NCBI GenBank assembly: GCA_964504455.1
Contig: CAZDDY010000003.1
Span: 1 to 38,742, forward strand
Direction of reading: 5' to 3'
Source of the DNA: an uncultured Candidatus Saccharibacteria bacterium
GTDB lineage: Bacteria; Patescibacteriota; Minisyncoccia; Phycocordibacterales; UBA9973
Length of the DNA: 38,742 nt
Shown here: in pieces, positions 16,541 to 37,492 of the stretch
Position numbering within the stretch: the stretch's first letter is position 1
Layout: the number at the start of each line of letters is the position of its first letter
Translations under genes and position numbers: made by a program
Notes under the pieces: generated by a model
What the model was told of the DNA's origin: nothing
Seen by the model: only the letters and a program-made list of their open reading frames with translations
Databases searched by the model: none

Positions 16541-16612
16541 TGACCCTACGGAGAATCGAACTCCGATTACAGCCTTGAGAAGGCCGTGTCCTAACCGTTA
16601 GACGATAGGGCC
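16541..16612 (-). tRNA. tRNA-Glu (anticodon CUC), 72 nt, CCA not encoded
   Basis: Hand-folded cloverleaf: acceptor GGCCCTA/TAGGGTC, D stem GTCT/GGAC, anticodon stem CGGCC/GGCTG with loop TT-CTC-AA, and T arm CGGAG-TTCGATT-CTCCG. Discriminator is A. Confidence 0.85.
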
Positions 16613-19063: not shown

Positions 19064-19135
19064 GCGTGTGTAGTTCAGTGGTAGAACGCTGTCCTGATAA
19101 GACAGAGGTCGTAGGTCCGATTCCTACCACACGCA
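19064..19135 (+). tRNA. tRNA-Ile (anticodon GAU), 72 nt, CCA not encoded
   Basis: Acceptor GCGTGTG/CACACGC, D stem GTTC/GAAC, anticodon stem CTGTC/GACAG with loop CT-GAT-AA, and T arm GTAGG-TCCGATT-CCTAC. Discriminator is A. Confidence 0.88.
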
Positions 19136-27100: not shown

Positions 27101-28006
27101 ATGCAATATCAAATACTTTTGTTTTACAAATACGTAAAGATAAAAGAACCAAAAATCGAAATGGAACGCCAAAAAGCGGTGTGTGAAGCTTTGGGATTGA
27201 AAGGACGCATGATTATTGCAGAAGAGGGGATTAATGGTACTTTTGAGGGCACTTTAGAAAACACCGAGAAGTATGTTTCATGGATAAAGTCCGACAAACG
27301 ATTTAGTGACATTCATTGGAAAAAAAGTGTTGGAACTGGTGATGCGTTTCCCAAACTTTCAATAAAAGTACGCAAAGAAATTGTTTCGCTTCATTTAGAA
27401 GATAAATATGGTGAAGATATCGACCCGAAAAAATTAACTGGTATTCATTTATCTCCAGACAAACTAAGAAAATGGTATGAGACTGGTAAGGAATTTTACA
27501 TTGTGGATATGCGAAATGACTATGAACTCAATGTAGGTAAATTTGAAAATACAATATTTCCTGGCTTAAAAAATTTCAGAGATTTGAGAGACACCGTCCA
27601 CACCCTAAACCACCTAAAGGATAAACCTGTTTTGACTGTCTGTACTGGTGGTGTAAGATGCGAAAAAGCTTCAGGATTTTTAAAACGGGAAGGATTTAGG
27701 GAAGTCTATCAATTAGATGGCGGGATAGTATCATACATGGAAAAATACCCTGGTATTGATTTTAAGGGCTCTTTATATGTCTTTGATAAAAGAATTACCA
27801 TGCACTTTAATGACCCGCATACACATGAAGTAATCGGCGTATGCGAGATGTGCGGTGAAAAGTCTGAAAGATACATAAATTGCCAAAACTTAAACTGTCA
27901 TAGACATTTTATTGCTTGTGAAAAATGTGCACCGGACACTGAATCTCTTTTTTGTAATGACTCATGCAAAGAAATAAGTATAGAGGCTACCTCAACTAAA
28001 AAGTAG
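27101..28006 (+). CDS. trhO: Rhodanese-domain tRNA U34 hydroxylase TrhO (YceA/UPF0176 family)
   Basis: N-terminal ILLFYKY, the rhodanese active-site loop CTGGVRCEKAS and a C-terminal Cys cluster. Confidence 0.85.
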   Translation: MQYQILLFYKYVKIKEPKIEMERQKAVCEALGLKGRMIIAEEGINGTFEGTLENTEKYVSWIKSDKRFSDIHWKKSVGTGDAFPKLSIKVRKEIVSLHLEDKYGEDIDPKKLTGIHLSPDKLRKWYETGKEFYIVDMRNDYELNVGKFENTIFPGLKNFRDLRDTVHTLNHLKDKPVLTVCTGGVRCEKASGFLKREGFREVYQLDGGIVSYMEKYPGIDFKGSLYVFDKRITMHFNDPHTHEVIGVCEMCGEKSERYINCQNLNCHRHFIACEKCAPDTESLFCNDSCKEISIEATSTKK

Positions 28007-30641: not shown

Positions 30642-32321
30642 ATGGAAGATAAAATCTGCCAAAACTGCCAAACAAAATTTAACGTAAGCACAACTGACAT
30701 AGACTTTTACCAAAAAATTGACGTACCAACACCAAAACTTTGCCCGACTTGTAGAGTAAAAAGAAGACTTTCTTTCAGAAATGAAAGAACTCTGTATAAA
30801 CGAACTTGTGATTTGTGTAAAAAAGATGGAGTTTCTATATATCCTGCAAATACTCTTTTCCCGGTATTTTGCCACCACTGTTGGTGGAGTGATAAATGGG
30901 ATCCACAAGCGTATGCTCTCGACTTAGATCTTGGGAGACCATTTTTACAGCAATTTGAAGAACTAAAGAATAAAGTACCTAGGATAGCACTTTTGGTTAT
31001 AGATAGCGTTCAATCTGATTACACAAACAATGCTGGAGAAAATAAAAATTGTTATTTAGTATTTGCAGCTGAAAAGAATGAAGACTGTGCATATTCACGA
31101 TTACTCATGAATAGTAAATTCGTGCTTGATGCGTGTTCAGTATATGAATCAGAGTTATCTTATGAACTGACAGATTGTCGAAAATGCTACAAATGCATGT
31201 TTTCAGAACAATGTCAGGAATGTAGTGATGTATATTTTTCTTTCGACATGAGAAATTGTCAAAACTCAATTTTCTGTACTCATGGCAGAAATGTCAGTTA
31301 TCGGATATACAACAAGCCTGTCAGTAAGGAAGAATTTGAGAAGAAAAAAAATGAAATATTTTCTTCATATGAAAATCTTGAGAAAGCAAAAGAGGAATAT
31401 AAAAAACTGAGAGAAAATACCTTCGTACAATTTGCGATACAGACCAAATGTCAAAATGCTACAGGAGATTACATGTACAACTGTTTTGACGGAATAAGAC
31501 TTTTTGATGTTCGAAATGCAAAAGATTCAGCGTATATGGCTGATGCTGAAGATCCAATTGATTGCCAAGACTGTAATAATATTTATTTTAAACCCGAAAG
31601 ATGTTACCAAATAATGGGATCACTTCAAACAAATAACTCAAGAGTCGGCGTCTACATCATGTTTTGCAATAATGTCGATTACTCAGATAGTCTATACCAT
31701 TGCAGTGACTGTTTTGGGTGTGTTGGTTTGAACAAGAAAAATTATTGTATCCTCAATAAACAATATACGAAAGAAGAATATTTTCAATTACGCGAAAAAA
31801 TAATTTCTCAACTCAAATCAGAAGAAATTTACGGAGAATTTTTCCCTCCAAATCTTTCTCCGTTTGGATACAACGAAACACTCACACAAGAGTACTACCC
31901 ACTTAAAAAAGAAGAGGCTATCAACACGGGTTTTCGTTGGCAAGAAGAGACTACTGGCACCTACGGAAAAGAAACAATCACATCGCGGGACATACCTCAA
32001 TCAATCAAGGAAGTAACTGACGCTATCACCACAGAGAGTCTTGCATGTGTTGATTGTGGGAAGAACTACCGTATCACACACATGGAACTTGAATTTTATA
32101 GAAGAATGAACATACCTCTTCCGAGAAGAGATTTTGAGTGTCGTCACAAACTTCGTATGGCAAAACGTACACCAAGAGAACTTTGGACAAGAACCTGCAT
32201 GTGTACTCATGAAAATCATGGACATAATGCCGAGTGCATTAATTCTTTTGATACAGCATACGCCCCAGAAAGAGTAGAGCAAATATACTGCGAGGATTGT
32301 TACCAGAAAGAAGTAATATAA
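30642..32321 (+). CDS. Cys-rich zinc-ribbon-capped repeat protein, paralog 1 (559 aa), function unknown
   Basis: Uninterrupted ORF 13 nt after rplI, with 36 Cys by hand count. N-terminal CQNC..x..DFYQKIDVPTPKLCPTCRVKRRLSFRNERTLYKRTCDLCKK...FCHHCWWSDKWD. C-terminal CVDC..LEFYRRMNIPLPRR...RTCMC..HGH..YCEDCYQKEVI. Confidence 0.85.
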   Translation: MEDKICQNCQTKFNVSTTDIDFYQKIDVPTPKLCPTCRVKRRLSFRNERTLYKRTCDLCKKDGVSIYPANTLFPVFCHHCWWSDKWDPQAYALDLDLGRPFLQQFEELKNKVPRIALLVIDSVQSDYTNNAGENKNCYLVFAAEKNEDCAYSRLLMNSKFVLDACSVYESELSYELTDCRKCYKCMFSEQCQECSDVYFSFDMRNCQNSIFCTHGRNVSYRIYNKPVSKEEFEKKKNEIFSSYENLEKAKEEYKKLRENTFVQFAIQTKCQNATGDYMYNCFDGIRLFDVRNAKDSAYMADAEDPIDCQDCNNIYFKPERCYQIMGSLQTNNSRVGVYIMFCNNVDYSDSLYHCSDCFGCVGLNKKNYCILNKQYTKEEYFQLREKIISQLKSEEIYGEFFPPNLSPFGYNETLTQEYYPLKKEEAINTGFRWQEETTGTYGKETITSRDIPQSIKEVTDAITTESLACVDCGKNYRITHMELEFYRRMNIPLPRRDFECRHKLRMAKRTPRELWTRTCMCTHENHGHNAECINSFDTAYAPERVEQIYCEDCYQKEVI

Positions 32322-34028
32322 ATGGAAACCAAAACCTGCCAAAACTGCAAAAGCGAATTTATCATTGATCAAGATGATTTTGACTTCTATGCAAAAATCA
32401 ATGTTCCACCTCCAACATTTTGTCCGGAATGTAGAGCTATCAGAAGATTAACATTTAGAAATGAAAGGGTGTGGTACAGAAGAAATTGTGATGCAACAGG
32501 TAAACAAATACTTTCAATGTTTTCTCCTGATACACCATATACTGTGTATGAGGAAAAATATTGGAAAAGTGATGCATGGGATCCTATGGATTATGGTAAG
32601 GATTATATAGAATCTGAAACCTTTTTTGATCAGTTAGATAATTTATTTAAAAAAGTACCTCATCCTAACCTAATTCAAAAAAACAACGTAAACTGTGAAT
32701 ACTCAAACTATACACTCAATGGTAAGAACTGTTACTACTGTGCAAGTTTTGATGAAGTAGAGGATAGTGCATATTGCTTCACGAACAATACAAGAATTAA
32801 AAATTGCCTTGATTTGCATGTTACAGCTGAATCAGAATATTGTTATGAACTTATTGACTCAAAAAAATGTAGTCGAGTTTGCTTTGCGCAAAACTGTGAG
32901 TCATGTGTAAATTCAATTTTTCTATATGATTGTCGAAATTGTACAGACTGTTTTGGATGTATTGGGTTGCGAAATAAACAATATTATATTTTTAATGAAC
33001 AATATGACAAGGAAACATACAAGGAAAAAATAAAAGAACTGTGGGACGGTGGTTATACAAAACTGAAAGAATCTTTAAAAAAGTTTAATGAGTTAAAAAT
33101 TAAAGTTCCTCATAAATTTGCAAACATAGTTAATTCTTACAATGTAAGCGGAGATAATATAGCAAATGCTCGAAACTGTCACTTTTGCTACATAGCAAAA
33201 GAAAATATTGAAAATTGTAAGTACTGTTTTCGTGTATGGGAAAATACTAAAGATGGCTGGGATGCTTACTGTGCGTGGAAAGGATCAGAACTTTTTTATG
33301 AGGCACATAGTATAATTGGTCAAAGAATATTTTTTTCACTTTATGTTTGGGGAGGTCATGATGTTGAATACTCATACAATTGTTTTGACTGCAACAACAT
33401 ATTTGGTTGCGTCGGATTGAGAAATAAATCTTATTGTATTTTAAATAAGCAATACTCAAAAGAAGAATATTTAAAGCTGATTGAAAGAATTAAAGAAAAT
33501 ATGCGTATGGCAAAAGAGTACGGTGAATTTCTTCCATCAAGTGTGTCACCATTTGCATATAATGAAACTATTGCTCAAGACTACTTTCCACTATCAAAAA
33601 AAGAAATTATTGAAAAAGGATATAGATTTAAAGAAGCAGAAAAGAAAAATTATGCTATAAGCATGAACAGCAACAGTATTCCTGAAAATATCTCAACTAT
33701 TAACGAATCGATAGTAAATGAAGTACTGGCGTGTGAGCACAATGGAACATGCTCTGAACTTTGTGCTACTGCATTTAAAATTACAAAAGAAGAATTACAG
33801 TTTTATAGAAATTTAAATTTACCTTTGCCTAGACTTTGTCCAAGTTGTCGTCATTTTAGAAGAGTTAATTTAAAGAATCCTATGAAACTTTGGACAAGAA
33901 CATGCATGTGCCAGAATGGTAATCATGGACACGAAAGAACATGCCCTCAAAAATTTGAAACACCGTATGCTCCAGAAAGAAAGGAACTAATTTATTGTGA
34001 AAAATGTTACCAACAAGAGATACTCTAA
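32322..34028 (+). CDS. Cys-rich zinc-ribbon-capped repeat protein, paralog 2 (568 aa), function unknown
   Basis: The ATG abuts the paralog 1 stop (TAAATG). 38 Cys by hand count. It carries two copies of the CxxCxDCFGCxGLRNKxYxIxNxQYxKExY cap (nt 32931-33020 and 33381-33470). Confidence 0.85.
   Translation: METKTCQNCKSEFIIDQDDFDFYAKINVPPPTFCPECRAIRRLTFRNERVWYRRNCDATGKQILSMFSPDTPYTVYEEKYWKSDAWDPMDYGKDYIESETFFDQLDNLFKKVPHPNLIQKNNVNCEYSNYTLNGKNCYYCASFDEVEDSAYCFTNNTRIKNCLDLHVTAESEYCYELIDSKKCSRVCFAQNCESCVNSIFLYDCRNCTDCFGCIGLRNKQYYIFNEQYDKETYKEKIKELWDGGYTKLKESLKKFNELKIKVPHKFANIVNSYNVSGDNIANARNCHFCYIAKENIENCKYCFRVWENTKDGWDAYCAWKGSELFYEAHSIIGQRIFFSLYVWGGHDVEYSYNCFDCNNIFGCVGLRNKSYCILNKQYSKEEYLKLIERIKENMRMAKEYGEFLPSSVSPFAYNETIAQDYFPLSKKEIIEKGYRFKEAEKKNYAISMNSNSIPENISTINESIVNEVLACEHNGTCSELCATAFKITKEELQFYRNLNLPLPRLCPSCRHFRRVNLKNPMKLWTRTCMCQNGNHGHERTCPQKFETPYAPERKELIYCEKCYQQEIL
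32334..32435 (+). repeat. 102-nt near-identical tract, copy 1 (5' end of paralog 2)
   Basis: Identical to 34041-34142 except for 2 positions (agc/ggc and atc/gtc). Confidence 0.9.
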
Positions 34029-35741
34029 ATGAATATTAATACCTGCCAAAACTGCAAAGGCGAATTTGTCATTGATCAAGATGATTTTGACTTCTATGCA
34101 AAAATCAATGTTCCACCTCCAACATTTTGTCCGGAATGTAGAATGAAGCGTAGAATGAATTGGCGTAATGTTAGATCACTCTATAAACGAACTTGTGGCT
34201 TGTGTCAAAAGAACTTAATAAGCATGTATCCAGACGACGGAGCGCCAGTCTATTGTATTGAGTGTTGGAACAGTGATAAGTGGAATCGTTATGAGCATAA
34301 AATGCAATATGATTTTTCGGAAAATTTTTTTACACAACTCAATAAATTATTTAAAAAAAATCCACGACCATATAAGTACGCTTTTGGGAATTTAATCAAC
34401 TCCGAGTATGCAAACTATATAAAAGACAACAAAAACGTTTATTTATCATACTCAATTGTTGTTGGTGAAGATATTTTGTATTCAGAAAGTCTTGATAAAT
34501 CCAAAAATAGTATTGATTGTTACGCTGCTGAAAGCATTGATGGATGTTCTTATAATGTAGATTGTGAAGGCAATTACAATACACATTATGCTGTTAAATC
34601 AGAAAAGTGTATCGACTCTTACTTTATATATGACTGCGTTAATTGTAAAAATTGCTGTCTGAGTTCAAATTTAAGAAATCAATCTTATGTATTTAAAAAT
34701 CAAAAACTAGAAAAAGAAGAGTACGAAAAAGCTGTTTTAGAATTAAAACTTGAGACGTATTCAGGTTTTGAAAATACGAAAAAAATATTCGATAGCATGC
34801 TTGTTACTGACACCATACATAAGTACGCATATGTCTACTCTGTGGAAAATGCAACGGGAGATTACATACACAATGTAAAAAATGGAAAATATATTTTTAA
34901 TGCTACTGAATCTGAAAATGTCGCATATAGCATGAGAATATTGCAAAATGTCAAAGATTCTTATGATCTTCAGGGTGTAGGAGCCAATGTTGAGCTTGTC
35001 TATGATTCTGTAGCAGCAACACAAGACACATATAAGGATTTTTTCTGTTATATAACTATACAAGGTAGTCGTGAATGTGAATATTCAATACATTTGAGAA
35101 ATTGTGCAAATTGCTTTGGTTGTGTGGGTCTAGTAAATGCCCAATATTGTATTTTAAACATGCAATATACAGAAGAAGATTATTTTGTACTTGTAGAAAA
35201 AATTAAAAAGCACATGAATGAAACTCCTTATGTCGACAAGAAGGGAAGGGTATACAGATATGGCGAATTTTTTCCTTATGAAATGTCACCGTTTGGATAT
35301 AATGAAACAAATGCTTTCGATTTTTTCCCGATAACAGAAGAAGAGGCGCTAGAAAAAGGATATAATTGGACAAAGAAAGACAAGAGAGAGTATGAGGTCA
35401 CAATTGATTCAACCAATTTACCTGAAAGTATACACGATGTTAAAGAAGAGATAGTAAAAGAAATAATAAGTTGCCCTAGTGGTGGTGATCAAAGATACCA
35501 ATGCACAAGCGCATACCAAATAAGACCAGAAGAACTTGCATTTTATAGATCAAAAAAACTTCCACTTCCTAGAAGCTGTCCAAATTGTAGACATTACAAA
35601 AGATTAAAATACAGGAATCAGCCACGATTGTACAAAAGAGAGTGTAGTAATAGGTGTGGAAAAATATTTGAAACAACATACACCCCTGATCGTCCTGAAA
35701 AAGTATATTGTGAGGATTGTTATCAGAAAGAAGTATTGTAA
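34029..35741 (+). CDS. Cys-rich zinc-ribbon-capped repeat protein, paralog 3 (570 aa), function unknown
   Basis: The ATG abuts the paralog 2 stop (TAAATG). 30 Cys by hand count. Same terminal modules (CQNC...FCPECRMKRRMNWRN...CGLC...YCIECW and ...LPLPRSCPNCRHYKRLKYRN...YCEDCYQKEVL). Confidence 0.85.
   Translation: MNINTCQNCKGEFVIDQDDFDFYAKINVPPPTFCPECRMKRRMNWRNVRSLYKRTCGLCQKNLISMYPDDGAPVYCIECWNSDKWNRYEHKMQYDFSENFFTQLNKLFKKNPRPYKYAFGNLINSEYANYIKDNKNVYLSYSIVVGEDILYSESLDKSKNSIDCYAAESIDGCSYNVDCEGNYNTHYAVKSEKCIDSYFIYDCVNCKNCCLSSNLRNQSYVFKNQKLEKEEYEKAVLELKLETYSGFENTKKIFDSMLVTDTIHKYAYVYSVENATGDYIHNVKNGKYIFNATESENVAYSMRILQNVKDSYDLQGVGANVELVYDSVAATQDTYKDFFCYITIQGSRECEYSIHLRNCANCFGCVGLVNAQYCILNMQYTEEDYFVLVEKIKKHMNETPYVDKKGRVYRYGEFFPYEMSPFGYNETNAFDFFPITEEEALEKGYNWTKKDKREYEVTIDSTNLPESIHDVKEEIVKEIISCPSGGDQRYQCTSAYQIRPEELAFYRSKKLPLPRSCPNCRHYKRLKYRNQPRLYKRECSNRCGKIFETTYTPDRPEKVYCEDCYQKEVL
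34041..34142 (+). repeat. 102-nt near-identical tract, copy 2 (5' end of paralog 3)
   Basis: See copy 1. The flanking coding sequence diverges sharply immediately after ...gtccggaatgtaga. Confidence 0.9.
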
Positions 35742-35743
35742 TT

Positions 35744-37492
35744 ATGCAAAGTAAAACTCCAAAATTTGATACCTTGCTTGATGAAATACTTGGATCCCTC
35801 ATACCACACAGACGTACATGTGTATGGAAAGGCAAGCACGCATATTGTGAAGAAGAGTTTGAACTTGAAGTAGGGGATATAGAATTTCTTAAATTCTTGC
35901 GAGTACCTCCACCAAATTTCTGTCCTACCTGTAGAAGAATGAGAAGAATGGTTCATATGGGTACGATTCATTTATTCAAGCGTGCATGTGATGCTCCAGA
36001 ACATGATGAAATGATTATTTCAATATTCTCGAAAGAATGCCCGTTTCCTGTCTATGATTATAAATACTTTGTTTCTGAAGAATTTGACGCACTTGCTTTT
36101 GGTAAAAATTATAATGTAGCCGAGAGTCCCATGGAGCAGTTATGGGGGATGCGAAAAACTTTCCCTATGCCATCATTTTTAAATCGTGATCTTCTAAGTG
36201 TAAATAGTGAATATACAAATGGTGGTAGAGATCTGAAAAATGGATACTACACTTCTGGGTGTTTTCATTCTGAAGATATTTGGTACTCAAATCTTGTAAA
36301 CAAAAGCAAAAGTATTATGGATTCAAGATCAATAAATACTTCAGAGTATGTATACAATAGTGCATATTCTCGTAACTTATATAAATGTTCCTTCACATAC
36401 TTTAGCAAAGAATGTAGTGACAGTATTTTTTTATACGATTGTAGGAATTGCACAGACTGTTTTGGTTGTGTTAATTTGCGTAATAAAAAATATCATGTGT
36501 TCAACAAAGAACTTGCGAAAGAAGAATATGCAACGTTTATGAAAAATGTTTACCCACTTACGCGAGAAAAACTTAACGCATATGCTGAAGAATTTTGGAC
36601 GTTAGTACACAGACTGCCGATGAATGCCTCCCAAAATACCCAGACTGAAAACTCAACCGGTATACTACTGTCACGAAGCAAAAATGTATACGATGCCATT
36701 CATAGTGAGAACTCAGAAAATGTACGACATATTGATGGAGCTCTTTCACACAAAGATTCAATGGACTTTTTATTCTCTGGTGGACACTCAAATAATTTGT
36801 ACATGACCACTAACATTGGTTCGGAATCAAGCAAGGTGAAGTTTTCAATTTCATCAAAGTTTTGCCTTGAATCTGAATTTATTTTTAATTCCAAAAGCCT
36901 TACTAATTGCTTTATGTGTTTTGGACTCGAGAATAAATCTTTTTGTATTTTAAATCAACAATACACTCAAGAAGAATATTGGCCACTCGTTGATATAATA
37001 AAAACTGAGATGCTCAAAAGGGGAGAGTATGCTGATGGGCCAGGAATGGAATTTTCTGCCCAGGCATATAATTTCTCTTTAGCGAATATTGCATTTCCTT
37101 TATCTGAGGAGATCATACTCTCGCTTGGTGGGTATGTTGGAAAAGAGCAAGAATCAAATACAGACGGTATAGAAATTATTGACTCTGAAAATATTCCAGA
37201 GAACATTGATGAAGTAAGTGACAAAATAACGACCAAAGCTTTGCGATGTACTCTTAGTGGAAAACCTTTTAAGGTTATTCAAACTGAACTCGATTTTTAT
37301 CGTAGAATGAAACTACCACTTCCAAATATTCACCCAACTATTCGAACAGATAAAATGTATCACATTGGTGCAGTTGGTAAAAAATACAACACTACGTGTA
37401 ATAAGTGCAATACGGATATACTTTCTATTTTTGATCCAAAAGAAAATTATAATTTCTATTGCGAAAACTGTTATCAACAAGAAATTATTTAA
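35744..37492 (+). CDS. Divergent or degenerate member of the same family, paralog 4 (582 aa), function unknown
   Basis: The ATG at 35744 lies 2 nt after the paralog 3 stop (the track start at 35717 overlaps it). It keeps FLRVPPPNFCPTCRRMRRM, CRNCTDCFGCVNLRNKKYHVFN, NCFMCFGLENKSFCILNQQYTQEEY and YCENCYQQEII, but has lost many ligand cysteines (22 Cys). Confidence 0.8.
   Translation: MQSKTPKFDTLLDEILGSLIPHRRTCVWKGKHAYCEEEFELEVGDIEFLKFLRVPPPNFCPTCRRMRRMVHMGTIHLFKRACDAPEHDEMIISIFSKECPFPVYDYKYFVSEEFDALAFGKNYNVAESPMEQLWGMRKTFPMPSFLNRDLLSVNSEYTNGGRDLKNGYYTSGCFHSEDIWYSNLVNKSKSIMDSRSINTSEYVYNSAYSRNLYKCSFTYFSKECSDSIFLYDCRNCTDCFGCVNLRNKKYHVFNKELAKEEYATFMKNVYPLTREKLNAYAEEFWTLVHRLPMNASQNTQTENSTGILLSRSKNVYDAIHSENSENVRHIDGALSHKDSMDFLFSGGHSNNLYMTTNIGSESSKVKFSISSKFCLESEFIFNSKSLTNCFMCFGLENKSFCILNQQYTQEEYWPLVDIIKTEMLKRGEYADGPGMEFSAQAYNFSLANIAFPLSEEIILSLGGYVGKEQESNTDGIEIIDSENIPENIDEVSDKITTKALRCTLSGKPFKVIQTELDFYRRMKLPLPNIHPTIRTDKMYHIGAVGKKYNTTCNKCNTDILSIFDPKENYNFYCENCYQQEII

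Follow-up and report, generated by a model that had tools for sequence, protein, structure and literature searches.

The cysteine-rich protein encoded at positions 30642-32321 (forward strand) of contig CAZDDY010000003.1, from an uncultured Candidatus Saccharibacteria bacterium (assembly GCA_964504455.1; the whole analysed stretch of 38,742 nucleotides (nt) is referred to below as the window), is built from two kinds of part, each of which is used twice. A terminal module of ~90 amino acids (aa) stands at both ends; in it an Arg-rich helix lies between a treble-clef-like Cys4 site and a second Cys4 site of the type CxxC-x16/17-CxxC. Between the two modules a core unit of ~150 aa occurs twice in tandem, each copy running from a helix through a beta-meander and four to five tight solenoid coils of ~12 residues to exit helices. 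The coils are closed by a CFGCxGLRNKxYCILNxQY turn, and a conserved, Cys-free linker of 70 aa connects the second core unit with the C-terminal module. The protein arose through two separate internal duplications; its mirrored order of N-module, core units H1 and H2, linker and C-module is incompatible with a single tandem duplication of a two-domain unit, and is an uncommon outcome of two independent duplications. It represents a large and undescribed family, new in having no curated model or solved relative of its core, while its parts are of known kinds. The favoured reading is a multi-zinc scaffold that would grip a partner and act with a neighbouring VirD4-like ATPase, a reading to which we give an even chance.

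The open reading frame (ORF) is complete and codes for a protein with 36 Cys, here called paralog 1 (p1), which divides as follows:

30642..30776, forward strand: p1 N-module site 1, a treble-clef-like knuckle of the form CxxC...CPxC, behind which the Arg-rich helix begins (CRVKRRLSF)
30777..30926, forward strand: p1 N-module site 2, CDLC-x17-CHHC (of the CxxC-x17-CxxC type), then a WWSDKWDP motif
30927..31385, forward strand: p1 core unit H1, with helix, beta-meander, solenoid coils and exit helices; degenerate cap at 31248-31337
31386..31826, forward strand: p1 core unit H2, with the intact cap CSDCFGCVGLNKKNYCILNKQYTKEEY at 31692-31781 and an exit helix
31827..32033, forward strand: p1 linker and spacer, the Cys-free YGEFFP..SPFGYNET..YYPL followed by an acidic variable spacer with IPQSI
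32034..32318, forward strand: p1 C-module, with three of the four Cys in site 1 (CVDC...RRDFEC) and an intact site 2 (TC..C...YCEDC) at the C-terminus

A first-pass annotation of this DNA, made from the letters alone, had counted three paralogs; there are four, the last of them divergent (HMM, hidden Markov model):

30642..32321, forward strand: paralog 1 (p1), 559 aa; family HMM E 6e-206, profile positions 2-579 covered
32322..34028, forward strand: paralog 2 (p2), 568 aa; both caps intact, Cys of N-module site 2 lost
34029..35741, forward strand: paralog 3 (p3), 570 aa; all four Cys4 sites intact, first cap partly degenerate (CCLSS)
35744..37492, forward strand: paralog 4 (p4), ~582 aa from its ATG; family HMM E 7.5e-169

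Both duplications had been proposed in that annotation, and both are borne out by single sequences as well as by profiles. In Smith-Waterman local alignments set against 300 shuffles, the N- and C-modules of p1 to p4 match with Z scores of 13.9, 17.9, 19.3 and 10.1, the observed score being unmatched by any shuffle, and control pairs of a module with the core did not exceed a Z of 3.3. The corresponding comparison by hhalign, on profiles cut from a 72-sequence family alignment, gave a probability of 99.3% (E 2.5e-20 over 78 columns), and the joint alignment of the two modules brings the basic helix and, at each of the two sites, both Cys pairs into register; in p1 the aligned identity between the modules is 25-31%. 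For the two core units the Z scores are 6.2, 20.7, 8.0 and 16.5 (p1 to p4) and the hhalign probability is 99.9% (E 5.4e-37 over 134 columns), with all hhalign cross-controls below 3%.

Several finer points of the same annotation also stand. The cap that closes the coils is the family's most conserved stretch (entropy 0.66-1.29 bits per position); the two caps assigned to p2, at nt 32931-33020 and 33381-33470, lie exactly there, and the degenerate first cap reported for p1 is present (nt 31248-31337). The linker had been described as strongly conserved and free of Cys: in 193 full-length relatives its positions G401, P405, Y413 and N414 are conserved to at least 97%, and the spacer behind it is, as had been said, acidic (mean charge -2.7) and variable. 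The claim that the paralogs share the same layout holds for the fold but not for every Cys site, several sites and caps being degenerate in individual paralogs.

Structural prediction gives the plan its shape. A full-length AlphaFold2 model was made for p2 on the family alignment, together with a separate model of p1 residues 1-95. The p2 model is a compact single body with a predicted local distance difference test (pLDDT) score of 92.1, a predicted template modelling (pTM) score of 0.89 and no disordered segment. Both of its ends read hairpin, helix, long helix, hairpin and short helix, a pattern matched by the secondary structure of the p1 1-95 model. At p1 N-module site 1 the predicted elements are strands at residues 2-5 and 12-15 and helices at 17-25 and 35-45; C6 and C9 fall in the loop between the two strands, and C34 and C37 at the start of helix 35-45. 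A hairpin loop holds the first CxxC and a helix start the second, so that the predicted geometry is that of a treble clef, and the terminal sites are better described as treble-clef-like, a knuckle in a hairpin plus a helix start, than as classical zinc ribbons. Of the four-Cys ribbons in the first-pass annotation, the Cys4 metal sites are supported indirectly, and the ribbon gives way to a predicted treble-clef-like fold. In comparisons with viral models the first site superposes on phage models named 'putative zinc-ribbon domain' at 0.5-0.7 A over 37-40 residues.

Each core unit in the p2 model comprises a helix, a long hairpin or meander, a strand pattern E--E--EEEE-- that recurs every 12 residues for four to five turns, and two helices. 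A solenoid-like core with repeats of 9-13 aa had been anticipated: the modelled coil of ~12 residues falls within that range, and the period of the sequence itself is refined to three. The 50 Protein Data Bank (PDB) matches listed by Foldseek are all left-handed beta-helix proteins, among them GlmU, LpxA, LpxD and gamma-carbonic anhydrase; they are weak, with E of at least 7e-4, template modelling (TM) scores of at most 0.23 and root-mean-square deviations (rmsd) of 8-22 A; their probability reaches 0.97. The search against viral models returned only a weak match to a hexapeptide-repeat protein and the matches to small zinc-ribbon domains. The residues equivalent to the linker are modelled at pLDDT 91-97 with little regular secondary structure, and since confidence is high despite this lack of regular structure, the linker probably packs on the protein body. 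More speculatively, this long conserved linker may let the C-module occupy, on H2, a place corresponding to the one that the N-module takes on H1.

The cysteines fall into two classes that behave differently across the 193 relatives. Site 1 of the N-module keeps all four Cys in 187/193 and so does site 2 of the C-module (187/193). Site 2 of the N-module is complete in 86, retains just its first Cys in 64 and has none in 41, so that three or all four have been lost together in 105/193; site 1 of the C-module is complete in 172 and reduced to its first Cys in 15. In the window the Cys of N site 2 are lost in p2 and p4, and C site 1 has three of four in p1 (RRDFEC) and has gone in p4. Retention or loss thus affects the Cys of a terminal site jointly, which is how metal ligands would be expected to behave, and the sites are predicted metal sites. 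On this basis each terminal site would hold one structural zinc ion, giving a chain four at most, with a predicted count of three to four for p1, three for p2, four for p3 and two for p4. Small proteins of Methanosarcina mazei with the CxxC-x17-CxxC arrangement, distant from this family, bind zinc as measured by inductively coupled plasma mass spectrometry (ICP-MS; PMC12704099).

The core cysteines occur solely at every third residue (positions 3, 6, 9 and 12 of the 12-residue register), at occupancies from ~0.1 to 0.98, and Ser, Val, Leu, Ala or Ile may take the place of any one of them. Since they recur every three residues and are exchanged one at a time, most of them look like small inward-facing residues that fill the solenoid's narrow interior. 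In the cap coil of H1 the four Cys are conserved to 88-98%, and the H2 equivalents are mostly Cys-Ser-Leu-Cys. A conserved metal site in the CFGC coil was considered and rejected, as the equivalent H2 positions are mostly Ser and Leu; judging from this pattern the cap Cys are probably core-packing residues and not a conserved metal site. Mean net charge is +3.5 for the first site of the C-module, +1.2 for the first site of the N-module and -5 for the whole protein, and the Arg-rich helix CRxxRRxxxRNxR is nearly invariant. The paralogs diverge most in the first part of unit 2 and in the inter-unit helices.

Patescibacteria account for much of bacterial diversity, and for the majority of the genes specific to their lineages no role is known. 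The family is among the larger of these blanks, with at least 5,260 clusters and up to nine copies per locus in genomes of ~1 Mb. An exhaustive profile search of 1.84 billion representatives returned 5,260, 3,836 and 2,300 clusters (50% identity) at E <= 1e-3, 1e-10 and 1e-30, respectively, all labelled hypothetical; a word-indexed search gave over 7,890 clusters at 90% identity, each of them either without a name or called 'hypothetical'. The best 150 profile matches are 428-612 aa long and nearly all align end to end with the profile. By record name the hosts are Paceibacterota, Nomura-, Lipton-, Staskawicz-, Giovannoni-, Sungii-, Jorgensen- and Niyogibacteria and Minisyncoccia, in addition to third-party assemblies generically labelled 'Saccharibacteria', in which the label 'uncultured Candidatus Saccharibacteria' may be generic. 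The family is thus carried by ultra-small Paceibacteria-type Patescibacteria (the candidate phyla radiation, CPR). Family genes were also seen on contigs binned outside the CPR, as Gammaproteobacteria (L015, 2.2 kb), Bacteroidales (L019, 1.8 kb) and Burkholderiales (L073, 268 kb), which are probably mis-binned or mislabelled CPR contigs. No relatives were found in IMG/VR viral contigs.

Searches of annotated collections returned little. Scans of the four paralogs against Pfam, NCBIfam, PADLOC and PHROGs gave sub-threshold zinc-finger matches only and nothing for the core, PDB sequence and profile searches with the whole protein, an N-module profile and a core-unit profile gave no credible match, and a literature search by Pfam names and accession and for cysteine-rich families of Parcubacteria and Patescibacteria found no description of the family. 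No 19-residue window with a Kyte-Doolittle mean above 1.5, and hence no stretch that could serve as a signal peptide or membrane helix, was found in the 193 members; by this sequence measure the family is soluble. In three loci (L050 1790-3532, L033 525-2336 and L060 5789-7533) the family gene is split into two adjacent ORFs, in two of the three close to or right at the border of the core units; frameshifts, errors of assembly or genuine half-proteins could account for this.

The genomic context of relatives was surveyed in 85 loci (1.43 Mb), which were picked as the best matches to p2 and include many orthologous positions, so that the counts are not independent. They hold 225 family ORFs, with two or more copies within 10 kb in 53 loci and up to nine in one; all of the 91 adjacent family pairs lie on the same strand, at a median gap of 15 nt. 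When the other 1,148 ORFs were clustered without bias, the commonest neighbour proved to be a soluble ATPase of ~500 aa (42 genes in 29/85 loci). It scores over the Pfam cutoffs for TrwB_AAD_bind, DUF87, TraG-D_C and T4SS-DNA_transf, resembles TraD/VirD4-like coupling proteins under the NCBIfam cutoffs, has no PDB sequence relative at E <= 0.01 and, judged by eye from the sequence, is without the usual membrane anchor. Of the 42 ATPase genes 28 directly abut a family gene, which in 18 cases follows at 4-152 nt, and the ATPase-family arrangement is identical on contigs obtained by an independent look-up route. A long form of the ATPase contains a genuine CxxC-x17-CxxC domain (TIGR04272, 49.8 bits against a cutoff of 36), the domain type of family site 2. 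In this long form (L003 2497-4680; L005 3314-5458) the CxxC-x17-CxxC domain is followed by a low-complexity tail of ~200 aa rich in Ser, Pro, Lys and Glu, which is probably disordered to judge by its composition. A CutA1 gene directly abuts a family gene in all seven cases in which it occurs in the locus set, and again in L086 and L087.

Three types of locus recur. The first reads dnaK, ATPase, family gene, ATPase, dnaJ, family gene, then cysS and others; the second, helix-turn-helix (HTH) regulator, 460-aa membrane protein, ATPase, family array, cutA and a second ATPase; the third, that of the window, S41 peptidase, rplI and family array. In many Paceibacteria loci (L005, L025, L035, L061, L073 and others) it is the insertion of ATPase, family gene and ATPase that separates dnaK from dnaJ, and in dnaK/dnaJ loci another family gene lies past dnaJ, upstream of a conserved block of cysS, perM, L21 and recR. 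A protein of 440-460 aa that has a membrane segment at its N-terminus and is matched by neither Pfam nor NCBIfam is encoded just upstream of the ATPase or the family array (L003 1069-4680; L051 6500-9895; L042, L057, L062 and L072), is often preceded by a Sigma70_r4 and HARE-HTH regulator, and may be the membrane partner of the ATPase. A survey of Patescibacteria counted 5,713 VirD4-like genes in 2,918 genomes, only 148 of them near virB4; its authors considered a different function possible and left the role open (PMC12102498).

Taken as a mechanism, the multi-zinc scaffold would work as follows. The rigid solenoid core would fix two equivalent basic zinc modules in position, and these modules would grip a polyanionic or protein partner. 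The family protein would cooperate with the VirD4/TraD-like ATPases located away from recognisable secretion genes, which in about a third of related loci are encoded right beside the family arrays, as their client or adaptor, and the diverged paralogs would provide different specificities. A wider proposal, which we regard as doubtful, is that the family arrays are the missing clients (cargo or substrate-piloting adaptors) of the thousands of Paceibacteria VirD4-like ATPases that are distant from known secretion genes, and that the arrays, the membrane protein encoded upstream, the ATPases and CutA1 would jointly form an unrecognised translocation system for the episymbiotic lifestyle.

A number of observations weigh against the scaffold and its link to the ATPase. 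In 56/85 related loci there is no such ATPase within 10 kb, the counts come from the non-independent locus set described above, and adjacency alone is no proof of physical interaction. The window itself, with its rplI-type locus, holds neither an ATPase of this kind nor a CutA1 gene within 38.7 kb. On the structural side, the p1 1-95 model is uncertain in the orientation between its two sites (pTM 0.47), and the extreme C-terminus of the family bears a conserved Glu instead of a basic tail.

The alternative that survives best, although rather doubtful in our estimate, takes the proteins as translocated cargo: effector-like paralogs would be passed by the VirD4-like ATPase to a type IV secretion apparatus and into the host cell of these episymbionts, and the arrays would amount to a diversified effector repertoire. 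In Bartonella, effector arrays adjoin virD4. Diversified tandem arrays directly downstream of coupling-protein-like ATPases would fit such a role, as would the report of type IV secretion systems in Patescibacteria that are without relaxases and whose substrates are not known (PMC12102498); with no classical export signal in the family, export would have to be non-classical. However, a tightly folded multi-zinc solenoid would not easily unfold for translocation, all features of the core and the termini show strong conservation where effectors are usually variable, and the last residues include the conserved Glu and form no basic tail. Moreover, no VirB4 was recognised among the 15 commonest neighbour groups, most of which were identified by eye.

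It is unlikely that the proteins are stand-alone nucleic-acid binders whose two basic zinc modules bind DNA or RNA (incoming DNA, ribosomal or other RNA) independently of the ATPase. The near-invariance of the Arg-rich helix speaks for binding of this kind, CxxC-x17-CxxC domains are found in nucleic-acid-related proteins (PMC12704099), and the array of the window lies between rplI and rpmA. Yet the whole protein has a net charge of about -5, up to nine paralogs per array would be unusual for a housekeeping binder, and the adjacency to rplI is seen in just three of the seven loci that carry rplI. In Foldseek against the PDB the isolated N-module gave nothing significant, the best match (E 0.33) being to generic tandem zinc fingers, and thus no significant structural match to a nucleic-acid-binding domain.

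Metal or thiol homeostasis, in which the Cys-rich arrays and CutA1 would together serve to buffer or store zinc or copper or as redox sensors, strikes us as improbable. The 22-38 Cys per protein and the invariable abutment of CutA1 to a family gene where it occurs (7/7, and again in L086 and L087) invite such a reading, but Cys content is just 3.7-6.7%, core Cys are freely replaced by Ser, Val or Leu, whole sites are lost in many members, and the most conserved parts include non-Cys residues and the Cys-free linker, which would be superfluous in a simple metal sink. That the protein is a hexapeptide-repeat (left-handed beta-helix) acyltransferase-like enzyme with added zinc fingers is highly improbable: the fold of the 50 listed PDB matches (E from 7e-4, probability up to 0.97) favours it, against their TM scores of at most 0.23 and rmsd of 8-22 A, the absence of a Pfam Hexapep match at E <= 1 in the four paralogs, a coil of ~12 instead of 18 residues and the lack of an invariant His.

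In the window, p1 to p4 stand head to tail without intergenic space, each start codon lying 0-2 nt past the preceding stop; their pairwise identity is 30-41% and they contain 22-38 Cys each (3.7-6.7% of residues). The most divergent copy is p4, which has lost N site 2 and C site 1 and has a degenerate linker. It most likely starts with the ATG at 35744, 2 nt past the TAA of p3; the ORF-finder start, TTG 35717, was rejected as it lies inside p3 and the ATG stands 2 nt after the p3 stop. Even when read from ATG 35744, p4 retains an N-terminal extension of ~25 aa that the other copies do not have. No RNA family and no convincing terminator were found inside the array, a scan for promoters and terminators gave nothing over the shuffled background that would split it, and the antisense ORFs in the array are shadows of the coding frames. 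Genes of the p2 and p3 types also adjoin in the closest genome, at 77% and 52% identity to the window copies, and to judge from this adjacency the window paralogs are old and maintained.

The first ~30 codons of p2 and p3 (32322-32435 and 34029-34142) are 92% identical in DNA and 90% identical at third codon positions, compared with 33-60% at third positions outside this tract. A 189-nt repeat of 85% identity spans the p1/p2 and p2/p3 junctions (32247-32435 and 33954-34142). From its sequence the start tract of p2 and p3 looks like a recent gene conversion or unequal crossover within the array.

Upstream of the array and on the same strand lie an S41 peptidase gene and rplI, and the array faces rpmA. 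Genes for ATP synthase, a TrhO-like and an RsmI-like protein are found farther upstream in the window. The TrhO-like rhodanese protein (27101-28006) has a Cys-rich C-terminal tail (Rhodanese_C) unrelated to the family modules. Two tRNA genes, at 16541-16612 (reverse strand) and 19064-19135 (forward strand), are the sole Rfam matches in the window.

Compared with known systems, the terminal sites stand closest to zf_Tbcl (PF13451), zf_Tbcl_2 (PF23477) and TIGR04272, with which they have in common the Cys spacings CxxC...CPxC and CxxC-x16/17-CxxC and, in the models, a predicted hairpin-plus-helix knuckle. The x17 spacing is found in p1 N site 2 (CDLC-x17-CHHC) and p4 C site 2 (CNKC-x17-CENC), and p3 N site 2 has x16. 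Against a cutoff of 24 bits zf_Tbcl scores 15.9 (at N site 1), 18.5 and 19.3 bits in p1 to p3 and does not match p4; against a cutoff of 27, zf_Tbcl_2 scores 26.1 bits at p3 residues 49-83 and 19.7 bits at the p4 C-terminus; and TIGR04272 reaches 18.1-18.5 bits against 36. Zinc-finger profiles match at E <= 0.01 in 18/72 members for zf_Tbcl (best E 2.6e-4) and in a further profile comparison in 5/72. As these scores are below every curated cutoff, the sequences point to distant relatives of these families and not to members of them. The family differs from zf_Tbcl, zf_Tbcl_2 and TIGR04272 in that two domain types are fused around a basic helix, that the resulting module is used twice and that a large core has been added.

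The core shares with LpxA, LpxD, GlmU and gamma-carbonic anhydrase, as far as the models go, a solenoid of short parallel strands with small residues facing inward. There is no sequence relationship to left-handed beta-helix proteins (no Hexapep match at E <= 0.01 in 72 members), every third residue of the ~12-residue coil is an inward position, and the family has short units capped by helices and no conserved catalytic residues; the modelled resemblance is thus one of general fold class alone. A Cys-braced 12-residue beta-helix also occurs in insect antifreeze proteins of the Tenebrio type, which are small, secreted, disulfide-bonded and right-handed. The likeness lies in the narrow 12-residue coil with interior Cys six apart; by contrast the family is cytoplasmic and its Cys are replaceable, and antifreeze proteins are absent among the Foldseek matches listed. 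Metallothionein-like stores are a poor parallel too, given a Cys content of 3.7-6.7% and a Cys-free linker among the most conserved segments.

There remain the clients and accessory proteins of VirD4/TraD-type ATPases. Family proteins differ from these in having no relaxase or recognised effector domain, and resemble them in the position of their genes beside a coupling-protein-like ATPase and in their multi-gene arrays. Most VirD4-like ATPase genes of Patescibacteria lie away from secretion genes, and for these ATPases, whose role has been described as open, the neighbourhood offers a candidate partner (PMC12102498). The confident structural plan makes the family protein tractable, and predicts the number of zinc ions in each paralog.

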